A DNA stretch of 64,000 nt from Escherichia coli (GTDB lineage: Bacteria > Pseudomonadota > Gammaproteobacteria > Enterobacterales > Enterobacteriaceae): NCBI RefSeq assembly GCF_016026235.1, contig NZ_CP065613.1. One strand, written 5' to 3'. Numbering within the stretch: position 1 is the first letter of the stretch; every line of letters begins with the position of its first letter. The notes below the pieces were generated by a model. The model saw nothing but the letters and a program-made list of their open reading frames with translations. It made no database searches and had not been told where the DNA came from. The position numbers were made by a program, and so were the translations under genes. Positions 6,650-60,982 of this stretch are shown piece by piece.

Positions 6650-6688
6650 CAGAAAAGCAAAAAGCTCGCCGAAGCGAGCTTTTTTAAT
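6650..6688. terminator. Bidirectional intrinsic terminator (ubiF on plus; tRNA operon on minus)
   Basis: Hairpin aaagctcgc-cgaa-gcgagcttt followed by TTTTT on plus and preceded by an A-run (T-run on minus). Confidence 0.7.
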
Positions 6689-6689
6689 G

Positions 6690-6764
6690 TGGCTGGGGTA
6701 CGAGGATTCGAACCTCGGAATGCCGGAATCAGAATCCGGTGCCTTACCGCTTGGCGATACCCCA
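6690..6764 (-). tRNA. glnX: tRNA-Gln (anticodon CUG), 75 nt including CCA
   Basis: Reverse complement matches the E. coli tRNA-Gln2 sequence as recalled: UGGGGUAUCGCCAAGCGGUAAGGCACCGGAUUCUGAUUCCGG...CCA; anticodon loop AUUCUGAUU. Confidence 0.97.
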
Positions 6765-6801
6765 ACTGGGTGCACTTACGATGTAAGCGTCTTGAATAAA
6801 T

Positions 6802-6876
6802 TGGCTGGGGTACGAGGATTCGAACCTCGGAATGCCGGAATCAGAATCCGGTGCCTTACCGCTTGGCGATACCCCA
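6802..6876 (-). tRNA. glnV: tRNA-Gln (anticodon CUG, wild-type, i.e. not the supE CUA allele)
   Basis: Identical in sequence to the copy at 6690-6764; anticodon CUG. Confidence 0.97.
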
Positions 6877-6924
6877 ACAAATTGGTTTTTGAATTTGCCG
6901 AACGTATTCGACACATTCAGAATG

Positions 6925-7001
6925 TGGTGGCTACGACGGGATTCGAACCTGTGACCCCATCATTATGAGTGATGTGCTCTAACCAACTGAGCTACGTAGC
7001 C
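6925..7001 (-). tRNA. metU: Elongator tRNA-Met (anticodon CAU), 77 nt
   Basis: Reverse complement GGCUACGUAGCUCAGUUGGUUAGAGCACAUCACUCAUAAUGAUGGGGUCACAGGUUCGAAUCCCGUCGUAGCCACCA. Confidence 0.97.
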
Positions 7002-7016
7002 AGATTGTTTCTTCGA

Positions 7017-7091
7017 TGGCTGGGGTACCTGGATTCGAACCAGGGAATGCCGGTATCAAAAACCGGTGCCTTACCGCTTGGCGATACCCCA
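7017..7091 (-). tRNA. glnW: tRNA-Gln (anticodon UUG)
   Basis: Reverse complement gives a tRNA-Gln1-type sequence with anticodon loop UUUUGAU; CCA encoded. Confidence 0.97.
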
Positions 7092-7125
7092 ATAACCGGG
7101 CGGTGAACCGCTTACTCGAAGAAGA

Positions 7126-7200
7126 TGGCTGGGGTACCTGGATTCGAACCAGGGAATGCCGGTATCAAAAACCGGTGCCTTACCGCTTGGCGATACCCCA
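7126..7200 (-). tRNA. glnU: tRNA-Gln (anticodon UUG)
   Basis: Identical to the copy at 7017-7091. Confidence 0.97.
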
Positions 7201-7223
7201 TCCGTACAACGCTTTCTGGTGAA

Positions 7224-7308
7224 TGGTGCGGGAGGCGAGACTTGAACTCGCACACCTTGCGGCGCCAGAACCTAAATCTGGTGCGTCTACCAATTTCGCC
7301 ACTCCCGC
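7224..7308 (-). tRNA. leuW: tRNA-Leu (anticodon UAG), 85 nt with long variable arm
   Basis: Reverse complement GCGGGAGUGGCGAAAUUGGUAGACGCACCAGAUUUAGGUUCUGGCGCCGCAAGGUGUGCGAGUUCAAGUCUCGCCUCCCGCACCA. Confidence 0.96.
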
Positions 7309-7316
7309 AAAAAAGA

Positions 7317-7393
7317 TGGTGGCTACGACGGGATTCGAACCTGTGACCCCATCATTATGAGTGATGTGCTCTAACCAACTGAGCTACGTAGCC
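7317..7393 (-). tRNA. metT: Elongator tRNA-Met (anticodon CAU)
   Basis: Identical to the copy at 6925-7001; first gene of the minus-strand tRNA operon. Confidence 0.97.
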
Positions 7394-7733
7394 ATCTTTT
7401 TTTCGCGATACCTTATCGGCGTTGCGGGGCGCATTATGCGTATAGAGCCTTGCAGCGTCAACCTCTTTTTCAAGGAAAATTGCTCGAAAGTGACTGTTTG
7501 GTTAGGTTGCGAACAGCGTGGCGCTATATTCGTCAATTATTGTTTACTTTGTGTTTTTTCCCCACCCTACAGCCATTCTTCTGTCGTACAGGATGAAATT
7601 CGGAATTCAACAATAGTGGTGGGAAATTAATCTATGAAATACTGGCCTACAGTGATGAGTTGTCAAACAGTGATGTGGCAAACCCGGAACATTTCCTTAC
7701 TGCATATCAGAATTAACAAGCACCTCAATAACT

Positions 7734-9682: not shown

Positions 9683-9795
9683 ATGCCGGATGCGGCGTGA
9701 ACGCCTTATCCGGCCTACAAAAGCATGAAAATTCAATATATTGCAGGAGCTGCGTAGGCCTGATAAGCGTAGCGCATCAGGCAGTTTGGCGTTTG
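9683..9795. repeat. BIME/RIP element: two inverted REPs flanking an IHF-like core
   Basis: gccggatgcggcgtgaacgccttatccggcctac ... aattcaatatattgcag ... gtaggcctgataagcgtagcgcatcaggc. Confidence 0.8.
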
Positions 9796-9833
9796 TCATC
9801 AGAGCCAACCACGTCCGCAGACGTGGGTGGTAT

Positions 9834-16150: not shown

Positions 16151-16159
16151 TCTGCTTTA

Positions 16160-16250
16160 TGCCTGATGCGACGCTTGACGCGTCTTATCAGGCCTACAAA
16201 AGCTCAGTCCAGGTTGGATAAGACGCTTAAGCGTCGCATCCAACAATGAC
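16160..16250. repeat. REP element pair
   Basis: gcctgatgcgacgcttgacgcgtcttatcaggcctac ... ggataagacgcttaagcgtcgcatcc. Confidence 0.8.
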
Positions 16251-18094: not shown

Positions 18095-18275
18095 CTATGC
18101 CGGATGGGGCGTTTACGTCGCATCCGGCAAGGAACAGACAAACAGTTTCAAACGCTAAATTGCCTGATGCGCTACGCTTATCAGGCCTACATGATCTCTG
18201 CAATATATTGAGTTTGCGTGCTTTTGTAGGCCGGATAAGGCGTTCACGCCGCATCCGGCAAGAAACATGCAAACA
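18095..18275. repeat. REP/BIME cluster (RIP-type with IHF-like core)
   Basis: atgccggatggggcgtttacgtcgcatccggc, gcctgatgcgctacgcttatcaggcctac, tgcaatatattgag core, gtaggccggataaggcgttcacgccgcatccggc. Confidence 0.8.
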
Positions 18276-25570: not shown

Positions 25571-25589
25571 ACGTATGACAAACACAGAA

Positions 25590-25690
25590 TTGCCTGATGC
25601 GCTACGCTTATCAGGCCTGCGAGGATGGTGCAATATATTGAATTTAAGCGATTTTGTAGGCCGGATAAGGCGTTCATGCCGGATCCAGCA
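25590..25690. repeat. BIME/RIP element (two inverted REPs plus IHF-like core) at the pgm-kdpE junction
   Basis: gcctgatgcgctacgcttatcaggcctgc ... caatatattgaatttaagcg ... gtaggccggataaggcgttcatgccggatcc. Confidence 0.8.
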
Positions 25691-25699
25691 TTTAACCGC

Positions 25700-52779: not shown

Positions 52780-53496
52780 ATGAGACTCGAGTTTTCAATT
52801 TATCGCTATAACCCGGATGTTGATGATGCTCCGCGTATGCAGGATTACACCCTGGAAGCGGAAGAAGGTCGCGACATGATGCTGCTGGATGCGCTTATCC
52901 AGCTGAAAGAGAAAGATCCCAGCCTGTCGTTCCGCCGCTCCTGTCGTGAAGGTGTGTGCGGTTCCGACGGTCTGAACATGAACGGCAAGAATGGTCTGGC
53001 CTGTATTACCCCGATTTCGGCACTCAACCAGCCGGGCAAGAAGATTGTGATTCGCCCGCTGCCAGGTTTACCGGTGATCCGCGATTTGGTGGTAGACATG
53101 GGACAATTCTATGCGCAATATGAGAAAATTAAGCCTTACCTGTTGAATAATGGACAAAATCCGCCAGCTCGCGAGCATTTACAGATGCCAGAGCAGCGCG
53201 AAAAACTCGACGGGCTGTATGAATGTATTCTCTGCGCATGTTGTTCAACCTCTTGTCCGTCTTTCTGGTGGAATCCCGATAAGTTTATCGGCCCGGCAGG
53301 CTTGTTAGCGGCATATCGTTTCCTGATCGATAGCCGTGATACCGAGACTGACAGCCGCCTCGACGGTTTGAGCGATGCATTCAGCGTATTCCGCTGTCAC
53401 AGCATCATGAACTGCGTCAGTGTATGTCCGAAGGGGCTGAACCCGACGCGCGCCATCGGCCATATCAAGTCGATGTTGTTGCAACGTAATGCGTAA
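52780..53496 (+). CDS. sdhB: Succinate dehydrogenase iron-sulfur subunit SdhB, 238 aa
   Basis: Cys clusters CREGVCGSDGLNMNG and CILCACCSTSCP. Confidence 0.97.
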   Translation: MRLEFSIYRYNPDVDDAPRMQDYTLEAEEGRDMMLLDALIQLKEKDPSLSFRRSCREGVCGSDGLNMNGKNGLACITPISALNQPGKKIVIRPLPGLPVIRDLVVDMGQFYAQYEKIKPYLLNNGQNPPAREHLQMPEQREKLDGLYECILCACCSTSCPSFWWNPDKFIGPAGLLAAYRFLIDSRDTETDSRLDGLSDAFSVFRCHSIMNCVSVCPKGLNPTRAIGHIKSMLLQRNA

Positions 53497-53499
53497 ACC

Positions 53500-53640
53500 G
53501 TAGGCCTGATAAGACGCGCAAGCGTCGCATCAGGCAACCAGTGCCGGATGCGGCGTGAACGCCTTATCCGGCCTACAAGTCATTACCCGTAGGCCTGATA
53601 AGCGCAGCGCATCAGGCGTAACAAAGAAATGCAGGAAATC
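53500..53640. repeat. Cluster of three REP elements between sdhB and sucA
   Basis: gtaggcctgataagacgcgcaagcgtcgcatcaggc; gccggatgcggcgtgaacgccttatccggcctac; gtaggcctgataagcgcagcgcatcaggc. Confidence 0.85.
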
Positions 53641-57830: not shown

Positions 57831-57854
57831 TAGTTTAAGTTTCACCTGCACTGT

Positions 57855-58040
57855 AGACCGGATAAGACATTATCGCCTTCTCCGGCAATTGAAGCCTGAT
57901 GCGACGCTTAACGCGTCTTATCAGGCCTACGGGAAGCACCGATGTAGGTCGGATAAGGCGCTCGCGCCGCATCCGACAAGCGATGCCAGATGCGACGCTT
58001 ACACGTCTTATCAGGCCTACGGGTGACCGACAATACCCGG
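57855..58040. repeat. REP element cluster between sucB and sucC
   Basis: gcctgatgcgacgcttaacgcgtcttatcaggcctac, gtaggtcggataaggcgctcgcgccgcatccgac, gccagatgcgacgcttacacgtcttatcaggcctac. Confidence 0.85.
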
Positions 58041-58105: not shown

Positions 58106-59272
58106 ATGAACTTACATGAATATCAGGCAAAACAACTTTTTGCCCGCTATGGCTTACCAGCACCGGTGGGTTATGCCTGTACTACTCCGCGCGAAGCAGA
58201 AGAAGCCGCTTCAAAAATCGGTGCCGGTCCGTGGGTAGTGAAATGTCAGGTTCACGCTGGTGGCCGCGGTAAAGCGGGCGGTGTGAAAGTTGTAAACAGT
58301 AAAGAAGACATCCGTGCTTTTGCAGAAAACTGGCTGGGCAAGCGTCTGGTAACGTATCAAACAGATGCCAATGGCCAACCGGTTAACCAGATTCTGGTTG
58401 AAGCGGCGACCGATATCGCTAAAGAGCTGTATCTCGGTGCCGTTGTAGACCGTAGTTCCCGTCGTGTGGTCTTTATGGCCTCCACCGAAGGCGGCGTGGA
58501 AATCGAAAAAGTGGCGGAAGAAACTCCGCACCTGATCCACAAAGTTGCGCTTGATCCGCTGACTGGCCCGATGCCGTATCAGGGACGCGAGCTGGCGTTC
58601 AAACTGGGTCTGGAAGGTAAACTGGTTCAGCAGTTCACCAAAATCTTCATGGGCCTGGCGACCATTTTCCTGGAGCGCGACCTGGCGTTGATCGAAATCA
58701 ACCCGCTGGTCATCACCAAACAGGGCGATCTGATTTGCCTCGACGGCAAACTGGGCGCTGATGGCAACGCACTGTTCCGCCAGCCTGATCTGCGCGAAAT
58801 GCGTGACCAGTCGCAGGAAGATCCACGTGAAGCACAGGCTGCACAGTGGGAACTGAACTACGTTGCGCTGGACGGTAACATCGGTTGTATGGTTAACGGC
58901 GCAGGTCTGGCGATGGGTACGATGGACATCGTTAAACTGCACGGCGGCGAACCAGCTAACTTCCTTGACGTTGGCGGCGGCGCAACCAAAGAACGTGTAA
59001 CCGAAGCGTTCAAAATCATCCTCTCTGACGACAAAGTGAAAGCCGTTCTGGTTAACATCTTCGGCGGTATCGTTCGTTGCGACCTGATCGCTGACGGAAT
59101 CATCGGCGCGGTAGCGGAAGTGGGTGTTAACGTACCGGTCGTGGTACGTCTGGAAGGTAACAACGCCGAACTCGGCGCGAAGAAACTGGCTGACAGCGGC
59201 CTGAATATTATTGCAGCAAAAGGTCTGACGGATGCAGCTCAGCAGGTTGTTGCCGCAGTGGAGGGGAAATAA
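58106..59272 (+). CDS. sucC: Succinyl-CoA synthetase beta subunit SucC, 388 aa
   Basis: ATP-grasp N-terminus [18 protein letters not shown]; expected length. Confidence 0.97.
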
Positions 59273-60141
59273 TGTCCATTTTAATTGATAAAAACACCAA
59301 GGTTATCTGCCAGGGCTTTACCGGTAGCCAGGGGACTTTCCACTCAGAACAGGCTATTGCATACGGCACTAAAATGGTTGGCGGCGTAACCCCAGGTAAA
59401 GGCGGCACCACCCACCTCGGCCTGCCGGTGTTCAACACCGTGCGTGAAGCTGTTGCTGCTACTGGCGCTACCGCTTCTGTTATCTACGTACCAGCACCGT
59501 TCTGCAAAGACTCCATTCTGGAAGCCATCGATGCAGGCATCAAACTGATTATCACCATCACTGAAGGCATCCCGACGCTGGATATGCTGACCGTGAAAGT
59601 GAAGCTGGATGAAGCAGGCGTTCGTATGATCGGCCCGAACTGCCCAGGCGTTATCACTCCGGGTGAATGCAAAATCGGTATCCAGCCTGGTCACATTCAC
59701 AAACCGGGTAAAGTGGGTATCGTTTCCCGTTCCGGTACACTGACCTATGAAGCGGTTAAACAGACCACGGATTACGGTTTCGGTCAGTCGACCTGTGTCG
59801 GTATCGGCGGTGACCCGATCCCGGGCTCTAACTTTATCGACATTCTCGAAATGTTCGAAAAAGATCCGCAGACCGAAGCGATCGTGATGATCGGTGAGAT
59901 CGGCGGTAGCGCTGAAGAAGAAGCTGCTGCGTACATCAAAGAGCACGTTACCAAGCCAGTTGTGGGTTACATCGCTGGTGTGACTGCGCCGAAAGGCAAA
60001 CGTATGGGCCACGCGGGTGCCATCATTGCCGGTGGGAAAGGGACTGCGGATGAGAAATTCGCTGCTCTGGAAGCTGCAGGCGTGAAAACCGTTCGCAGCC
60101 TGGCGGATATCGGTGAAGCACTGAAAACTGTTCTGAAATAA
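59272..60141 (+). CDS. sucD: Succinyl-CoA synthetase alpha subunit SucD, 289 aa
   Basis: CoA-binding start [27 protein letters not shown]; catalytic His region [12 protein letters not shown]; start overlaps sucC stop. Confidence 0.97.
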
Positions 60142-60214
60142 ATATCTGTAATAAGAAATAGCCCTCGCCGCTTCCCTCTACAGGAATGGCGAAGGGCTGT
60201 CGGTTTCGACATGG
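60142..60214 (+). ncRNA. sdhX: sucD 3'UTR, i.e. the 5' portion of the SdhX (RybD) sRNA locus, separated from its terminator by IS1
   Basis: Position directly after the sucD stop; the intrinsic terminator that would normally end this UTR lies at 60994-61017 beyond the IS1 insertion; the sRNA identity is from memory of K-12 and not verified. Confidence 0.4.
60206..60214. repeat. IS1 target-site duplication, left copy (tcgacatgg)
   Basis: Perfect 9-bp direct repeat flanking IS1; other copy at 60983-60991. Confidence 0.9.
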
Positions 60215-60269
60215 GGTAATGCTGCCAACTTACTGATTTAGTGTATGATGGTGATTTTAAGGTGCTTGC

Positions 60270-60545
60270 GTGGCTTCCATTTCCATCAGATGTCCTTCCT
60301 GCTCCGCTACTGAAGGCGTGGTGCGTAACGGCAAAAGCACTGCCGGACATCAGCGCTATCTCTGCTCTCATTGCCGTAAAACATGGCAACTACAGTTCAC
60401 TTACACCGCCTCTCAGCCCGGTACGCACCAGAAAATCATTGATATGGCCATGAATGGCGTCGGATGTCGCGCCAGTGCACGCATTATGGGCGTTGGCCTC
60501 AACACGGTTTTACGTCACTTAAAAAACTCAGGCCGCAGTCGGTAA
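60270..60545 (+). CDS. insA: IS1 protein InsA (transposition inhibitor / N-terminal part of transposase), 91 aa, GTG start
   Basis: [40 protein letters not shown]... zinc-finger and HTH; differs at several residues from the canonical IS1 InsA as I recall it. Confidence 0.93.
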
Positions 60546-60967
60546 CCTCGCGCATACAACCGGGCAGTGATGTGATTGTCTGCGCTGAAATGGACGAACA
60601 GTGGGGCTACGTCGGTGCTAAATCACGTCAGCGCTGGCTGTTTTACGCGTATGACAGGATACGGAGGACGGTTGTGGCGCACGTCTTCGGTGAACGCACT
60701 CTGGCCACACTGGAGCGTCTTCTGAGCCTGCTGTCGGCCTTTGAGGTCGTGGTATGGATGACGGATGGCTGGCCGCTGTATGAATCACGCCTGAAGGGAA
60801 AGCTGCACGTTATCAGCAAGCGTTACACTCAGCGCATTGAGCGACATAATCTGAATCTGAGACAACATCTGGCAAGGCTGGGACGGAAGTCACTGTCGTT
60901 CTCAAAATCGGTGGAGCTGCATGACAAGGTCATCGGGCATTATCTGAACATAAAACACTATCAGTAA
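60464..60967 (+). CDS. insB: IS1 insB frame (expressed as InsAB' transposase after -1 frameshift)
   Basis: ORF in the -1 frame relative to insA containing the conserved IS1 transposase sequence ...[39 protein letters not shown]... Confidence 0.9.
60521..60527 (+). promoter_or_regulatory. Programmed -1 ribosomal frameshift site (A6C) of IS1
   Basis: ttAAAAAACtc near the end of insA, in the insA/insB overlap. Confidence 0.8.
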
Positions 60968-60982
60968 GTTGGAGTCATTACC

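Follow-up and report, generated by a model that had tools for sequence, protein, structure and literature searches.

An intact-looking IS1F-type element within the small RNA gene sdhX of an Escherichia coli strain

A preliminary description of a 64-kb stretch of Escherichia coli DNA (64,000 nucleotides, hereafter the window) had drawn attention to an IS1 element near its right end, and we followed up that element by comparison with reference copies and with other genomes. We consider it very probable that window positions 60215-60982 hold an intact IS1 of the IS1F type that works as IS1 does, and that this copy arrived recently by transposition within the lineage, landing in sdhX. The element itself is already known, and the allele that it created is private, an ordinary insertion sequence polymorphism. 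Its one unusual aspect is the place of insertion, the seed of a small RNA, which might be pursued by a specialist in small RNAs or central metabolism.

Structure and coding capacity of the element

As references we took the IS1F and IS1A that are annotated in E. coli K-12 MG1655, and both aligned with the window copy without gaps. The alignments indicated that the element is a complete IS1 on the plus strand and, as the preliminary description had it, exactly 768 bp long, starting at 60215 with GGTAATGCTGCCAAC and ending at 60982 with GTCATTACC. The left inverted repeat (IRL, GGTAATGCTGCCAACTTACTGAT, plus strand, 60215-60237) and the reverse complement of the right end agree at 20 of 23 positions, and the right inverted repeat (IRR, plus strand, 60960-60982), which includes that terminal sequence, does not differ between the window copy and either K-12 reference. 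The IRL is that of K-12 IS1F, with A in place of the G that is found at position 4 of IS1A; GGTAATG is found at both termini of the window copy, and the A at position 4 makes the two ends more alike. Size and ends are those of the IS1 family, whose members are about 770 bp long and carry imperfect inverted repeats of about 23 bp that begin with GGT(A/G)ATG. Sequence comparison also identified a 9-bp target site duplication, with TCGACATGG present on the left (60206-60214) and on the right (60983-60991) of the element and only once in genomes with an empty site, in keeping with the 8-9 bp expected for IS1 (PMC12428005). Besides 60215-60982, a blastn search at word size 11 detected no IS1 sequence in the window, whole or fragmentary, and at E<=1 Rfam gave no match anywhere in 59000-62000, which takes in the IS1 and the two halves of sdhX that flank it.

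A consensus scan indicated a promoter-like site in or adjoining the IRL and directed toward insA, composed of CTGCCA, a 16-nt spacer, and TATGAT (plus strand, 60222-60249). The bases of its hexamers are invariant among IS1A, IS1F, and the window copy, and we take the site to be the known IRL promoter of IS1. The insA gene (plus strand, 60270-60545) begins with GTG and encodes the 91 residues that had been quoted, correctly, in the preliminary description; Pfam matches to PF03811 (1.5e-19) and PF12759 (1.8e-27) identify the product as a zinc-ribbon and helix-turn-helix (HTH) repressor or DNA-binding module. The A6C motif (AAAAAAC), the site of -1 programmed frameshifting, was located at 60521-60527 on the plus strand, and the insB' frame entered by the -1 shift extends from 60526 to 60967 on the same strand. 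Joined with 60270-60526, this frame is predicted to give a 232-aa InsAB' transposase that is not interrupted by any stop codon. The motif and both reading frames were intact, as had been proposed, and the arrangement of insA and insB' in the 0 and -1 phases around A6C, with an open conceptual product, would be that of an IS1 family member.

In InsAB', the Pfam domains PF03811 (zinc ribbon), PF12759 (HTH), and PF03400 (DDE_Tnp_IS1) were each matched over their full length with scores far exceeding the cut-off, the last with an E-value of 2.4e-74 over residues 102-232. The NCBIfam equivalog model for the IS1 family transposase (NF033558), whose cut-off is 100 bits, gave 245 bits. Apart from the conservative change D159E, every acidic residue in the catalytic domain is conserved, and a block of 51 nt around A6C (60508-60558) is identical to that of IS1A, which is experimentally mobile. 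If the copy works as IS1 does, the left-end promoter would transcribe insA, and normal translation would produce the 91-aa InsA, whose zinc ribbon and HTH are expected to serve end binding and repression. When, rarely, a ribosome slips by -1 at AAAAAAC, insA would be fused to the insB' frame to generate the 232-aa InsAB' DDE transposase, which would act on the two terminal inverted repeats of about 23 bp and produce the 9-bp target duplication.

The isoform could be assigned by nucleotide identity. The window copy has 5 mismatches to K-12 IS1F (763/768 identical, 99.35%) but 68 nucleotide differences from K-12 IS1A (91.1% identity), and the two K-12 elements differ from each other at 73 positions (90.5%), a value that has also been published for them (PMC12428005, PMC12903888). 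Some of the copies that share an identical segment have been named 'IS1-like element IS1F family transposase' by PGAP. In ISfinder practice, isoforms are separated at about 95% nucleotide identity. Near-identity to IS1F and clearly lower identity to IS1A are what an IS1F isoform should display, and by this comparison, which covered the K-12 elements only, IS1F appears to be the closest named reference of the window copy. A literature search on the ISfinder isoforms IS1N, IS1SD, IS1X2, IS1H, and IS1G returned resistance-plasmid usage only and no sequence relationships. We also looked for near-identity to IS1A or IS1B, for broken ends, and for a broken frameshift window, and encountered none of these. 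The preliminary description had called the element a divergent, IS1F-like isoform: the likeness to IS1F holds, while the element can be called divergent only when set against the textbook IS1A/IS1R, its type being present in most E. coli genomes (see below).

Mobility and spread of the IS1F type

The reference IS1F of K-12 (NC_000913.3, 4518472-4519239) shares its 768-bp length, ends, insA upstream region, and frameshift window with the window copy; it is the type 4 IS1 of Umeda and Ohtsubo (1991), according to the citation of that work in PMC12903888. It differs by five private substitutions (H34P, T52K, W163stop, S208L, and one silent change), none of which is present in the window copy. H34P lies in the second CxxC of the InsA zinc ribbon, and W163stop lies in insB', which is annotated as the pseudogene insB7 because of this stop codon. 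At the five private positions of K-12, all of the other full-length IS1F-type copies that we collected (23/23) agree with the window copy. By these comparisons, the K-12 reference is a decayed copy of the IS1F type, and the window copy represents its undamaged form.

K-12 IS1F is the sole member of the type that has been tested, and it was not autonomously mobile (PMC12428005); this can be attributed to the stop codon and H34P, both of which are missing from the window copy. The ends of K-12 IS1F, which are the same as those of the window copy, do transpose when transposase is supplied (PMC12903888). The preliminary description had judged the window copy to look transposition-competent, and as far as can be read from the DNA we agree: its open reading frames are intact, its frameshift block equals that of IS1A, its target site duplication is perfect, an empty site exists, and its ends are those of a transposable IS1F. 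We infer that the window copy would make an active transposase and was moved by its own enzyme. The IS1A and IS1F types are separated by 62 coding nucleotide differences, which have produced 14 amino acid differences (dS 0.36, dN 0.028, dN/dS 0.078), and this low ratio indicates that selection at the protein level has been maintained in both lineages, which have evolved as working protein-coding elements.

An alternative is that the window copy is intact-looking but non-autonomous and was moved in trans by an IS1A-type transposase encoded elsewhere in the genome. IS1F ends are good substrates for over-produced IS1A InsAB' and accounted for 44% of trans-mobilised events (PMC12903888), and in E. 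coli FDAARGOS_943, the closest genome, IS1A-type and IS1F-type copies are both found within the corresponding 64-kb region. However, IS1 transposase has a strong cis preference and acted in trans only when its levels were artificially high (PMC12903888), which favors autonomy, and the window copy has none of the changes that inactivate K-12 IS1F. The dN/dS value and the expansion of the type to at least 23 copies at loci of an IS1F-specific probe likewise argue that the type encodes a working enzyme of its own. We thus regard mobilization in trans as improbable and retain transposition by the element's own enzyme as the preferred reading.

The distribution of the type was surveyed in 5426 complete E. 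coli genomes with an IS1F-specific 67-mer, designed to give megablast no seed on the IS1A type, and with an IS1A probe built correspondingly. The 67-nt probe detected the IS1F type in 4234 of the genomes (78%), at a median of 2 and a maximum of at least 41 places per genome, most of them chromosomal. The IS1A-type probe matched 4314 E. coli genomes at a median of 9 places, many of them on plasmids; in this species, the IS1A type is more abundant than the IS1F type and is far more often plasmid-borne. When the full element was used as the query, identical 768-bp copies were recovered from many E. coli chromosomes and from plasmids of Shigella boydii, S. dysenteriae, and S. flexneri. Full-length identity in so many places leaves no role for chance in the resemblance.

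The GTDB representative genomes were also searched for exact matches to a 69-nt string of the IS1F type. The draft genome of Mixta sp. Marseille-Q2659 contained at least 23 IS1F-type copies that were 99.3-99.7% identical to the window copy, an expansion in which the type has multiplied outside Escherichia and Shigella. Single matches to the same string were found among these representatives in Siccibacter, Leclercia, Pantoea, Citrobacter, and Kluyvera, and the Siccibacter copy was more than 99% identical to the window copy. The IS1F type is by no means rare: it forms one of the major IS1 lineages, has spread horizontally, and is evidently active. Most E. coli harbor it alongside the IS1A type, and the textbook K-12 IS1F is a broken representative of a lineage that is widespread, intact, and mobile. 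Recognition of the intact type is useful for annotation and for the choice of reference sequences, and it leaves the understanding of IS1 unchanged.

Age of the insertion and its effect on sdhX

The flanks put the element between sucD and mngR. The best-matching complete genome, that of FDAARGOS_943, is 99.94-100% identical across the window (about 99.95%), with flanks that are 100% identical over 8215 nt on the left and 99.97% identical, with one mismatch, over 3018 nt on the right. In this genome the site is empty and contains a single TCGACATGG, and K-12 likewise has one. Removal in silico of the IS1 and one copy of the duplication yielded an empty-site sequence identical to both K-12 and FDAARGOS_943. 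Since a genome about 99.95% identical to the window has an empty site, we conclude that the element inserted recently. When the 5426 complete E. coli genomes were searched with the entire locus, IS1 and flanks together, none was found to carry the allele; the exact left junction had 0 matches in GTDB representative genomes, and the exact right junction had 0 matches in JGI metagenome contigs.

Precise excision of IS1 is rare. That the insertion is instead old, with the empty sites produced by precise excision, or that the segment was imported by recombination, is extremely improbable given this rarity, the two identical duplication copies, the near-perfect match of the flanks to an empty-site genome, the absence of the allele from GTDB species representatives and JGI metagenomes, and the finding that query coverage of at least 80% was reached in only three genomes, each with an IS1A-type element at another position and none with the insertion.

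FDAARGOS_943 has three IS insertions that the window does not have. An IS1F-type copy adjoins gltA; it is 1 nt off the window copy, and its flanking matches overlap by 9 bp (window 48007-48015). An IS1A-type copy is accompanied by a 1.1-kb deletion into dtpD (window ~37548-38640), and an IS5-family element is located in kdpA (window ~32845). At least 40 IS1 matches were found in the genome as a whole. The lineage is IS-active, and two near-identical genomes whose insertions differ in both directions are as ongoing transposition of the IS1F type produces.

The two genomes also differ at a tRNA cluster (window 6685-7409), which in the window contains a four-copy repeat family, corresponding to tRNA-Gln genes of FDAARGOS_943, and a two-copy family corresponding to tRNA-Met. 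Only three tRNA-Gln genes are listed for FDAARGOS_943 at this cluster and the blast alignment is interrupted at window 6766-6799, so the genomes differ by one repeat unit, whether through recombination or assembly collapse. Short direct and inverted dispersed repeats elsewhere in the window (9683-9799, 16156-16197, 18149-18264, 25575-25691, 36037-36148, 53493-53625, and 57852-58027) resemble ordinary intergenic palindromic elements of the REP/BIME type (GCCGGATGCGGCGTGAACGCCTTATCCGGCCTAC) and have no link to IS1.

The interruption of sdhX was absent from the preliminary description. In K-12, sdhX is annotated at 765050-765150 and encodes an Hfq-dependent small RNA in the 3'UTR of sucD. On the plus strand of the window, the K-12 annotation places the 5' part of the gene (K-12 nt 1-73, with the first stem-loop and seed copy 1) at 60142-60214, and sequence comparison and a terminator scan place the 3' part (nt 65-101, with seed copy 2 and the Rho-independent terminator) at 60983-61019, where the terminator stem spans 60994-61011 and is followed by a T tract. 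The duplicated TCGACATGG corresponds to sdhX nt 65-73 and the published 11-base seed UUCGACAUGGU to nt 64-74; the element thus interrupts the seed, and 9 of the 11 seed bases are now present twice. The seed of SdhX precedes the terminator stem-loop, and the 38-nt SdhX2 form is functional and sufficient for repression of ackA (PMC6393394).

The two copies of the seed have come to lie in different surroundings. The left copy is joined to sucD and the first stem-loop and no longer has a terminator. On the right (60983-61019), the seed, the terminator hairpin, and the U tract are all retained and together make up the 38-nt SdhX2 minus its first U (37 nt), now placed after IS1, and 768 bp of IS1 separate this SdhX2 module from the sdh-suc operon. 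A scan of the plus strand from sucD to the sdhX hairpin, IS1 included, found no other terminator-like site. IS1 insertions are strongly polar, and it is therefore most likely that much less SdhX is made from the sdh-suc transcript.

A second outcome would make use of the retained module. There being no terminator-like site on the plus strand of IS1, IS1 transcripts that reach the right end would stop at the sdhX terminator. The product could be a chimeric IS1-SdhX RNA with the SdhX seed and the Hfq-binding terminator at its 3' end, by which control of ackA, fdoG, and katG would be rewired from TCA-operon transcription to IS1 transcription; such an RNA would perhaps also bring Hfq to the transposase mRNA. 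We regard this rewiring as unlikely, and simple loss or strong reduction of SdhX as the more likely consequence. The source strain thus probably has a naturally mutated or rewired sdhX. It offers a natural allele in which an IS splits the seed of SdhX, the small RNA that couples the TCA-cycle operon, via ackA, to acetate metabolism, and the allele could matter for work on acetate metabolism or small RNAs that uses this strain.

We considered whether sdhX might be a hot-spot of IS1 insertion and rejected the idea: IS1A/IS1B-type elements near sucD were seen in four other genomes, and in the two that we inspected they lie beyond an intact sdhX. The few matches to the insertion locus at about 80% coverage among the 5426 E. 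coli genomes carry elements of the IS1A/IS1B type. In E. coli JX21CE8 and AHB10, an IS1A- or IS1B-type element is found shortly downstream of sucD, with sdhX intact, and is followed by unrelated genes (LysR-family, cydA). These two cases are IS1-associated rearrangements that removed mngR.

Comparison with known IS1 elements

IS1A and IS1E of K-12, the 'consensus' and experimentally mobile form, are close to the textbook IS1R of R100. They share with the window copy the 768-bp architecture, the right end, the promoter hexamers, the GTG start, the order of domains, and A6C with its identical 51-nt block. The differences from K-12 IS1A are those that the preliminary description had pointed to, and the common InsA sequence that it gave for comparison proved accurate: InsA differs at five residues (V4I, S7R, D15E, T69S, and I80V), and InsAB' as a whole at 14 of 232 (94.0% identical). 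The left end reads GGTAATG in the window copy and GGTGATG in IS1A, as seen in column 4 of the alignment. This position and five others just upstream of the insA start make up 6 differences in the 55 bases that precede insA, a region also correctly described as altered, and the likely ribosome-binding stretch is AAGGTG in the window copy versus GAGGTG in IS1A.

Also among the closest known elements are IS1 copies of the virulence plasmids of S. boydii, S. dysenteriae, and S. flexneri, many of which are 100% identical to the window copy over the full 768 bp. These Shigella plasmid copies are presumably the 'iso-IS1' of S. dysenteriae, which we assume to be listed in ISfinder under names such as IS1N and IS1SD.
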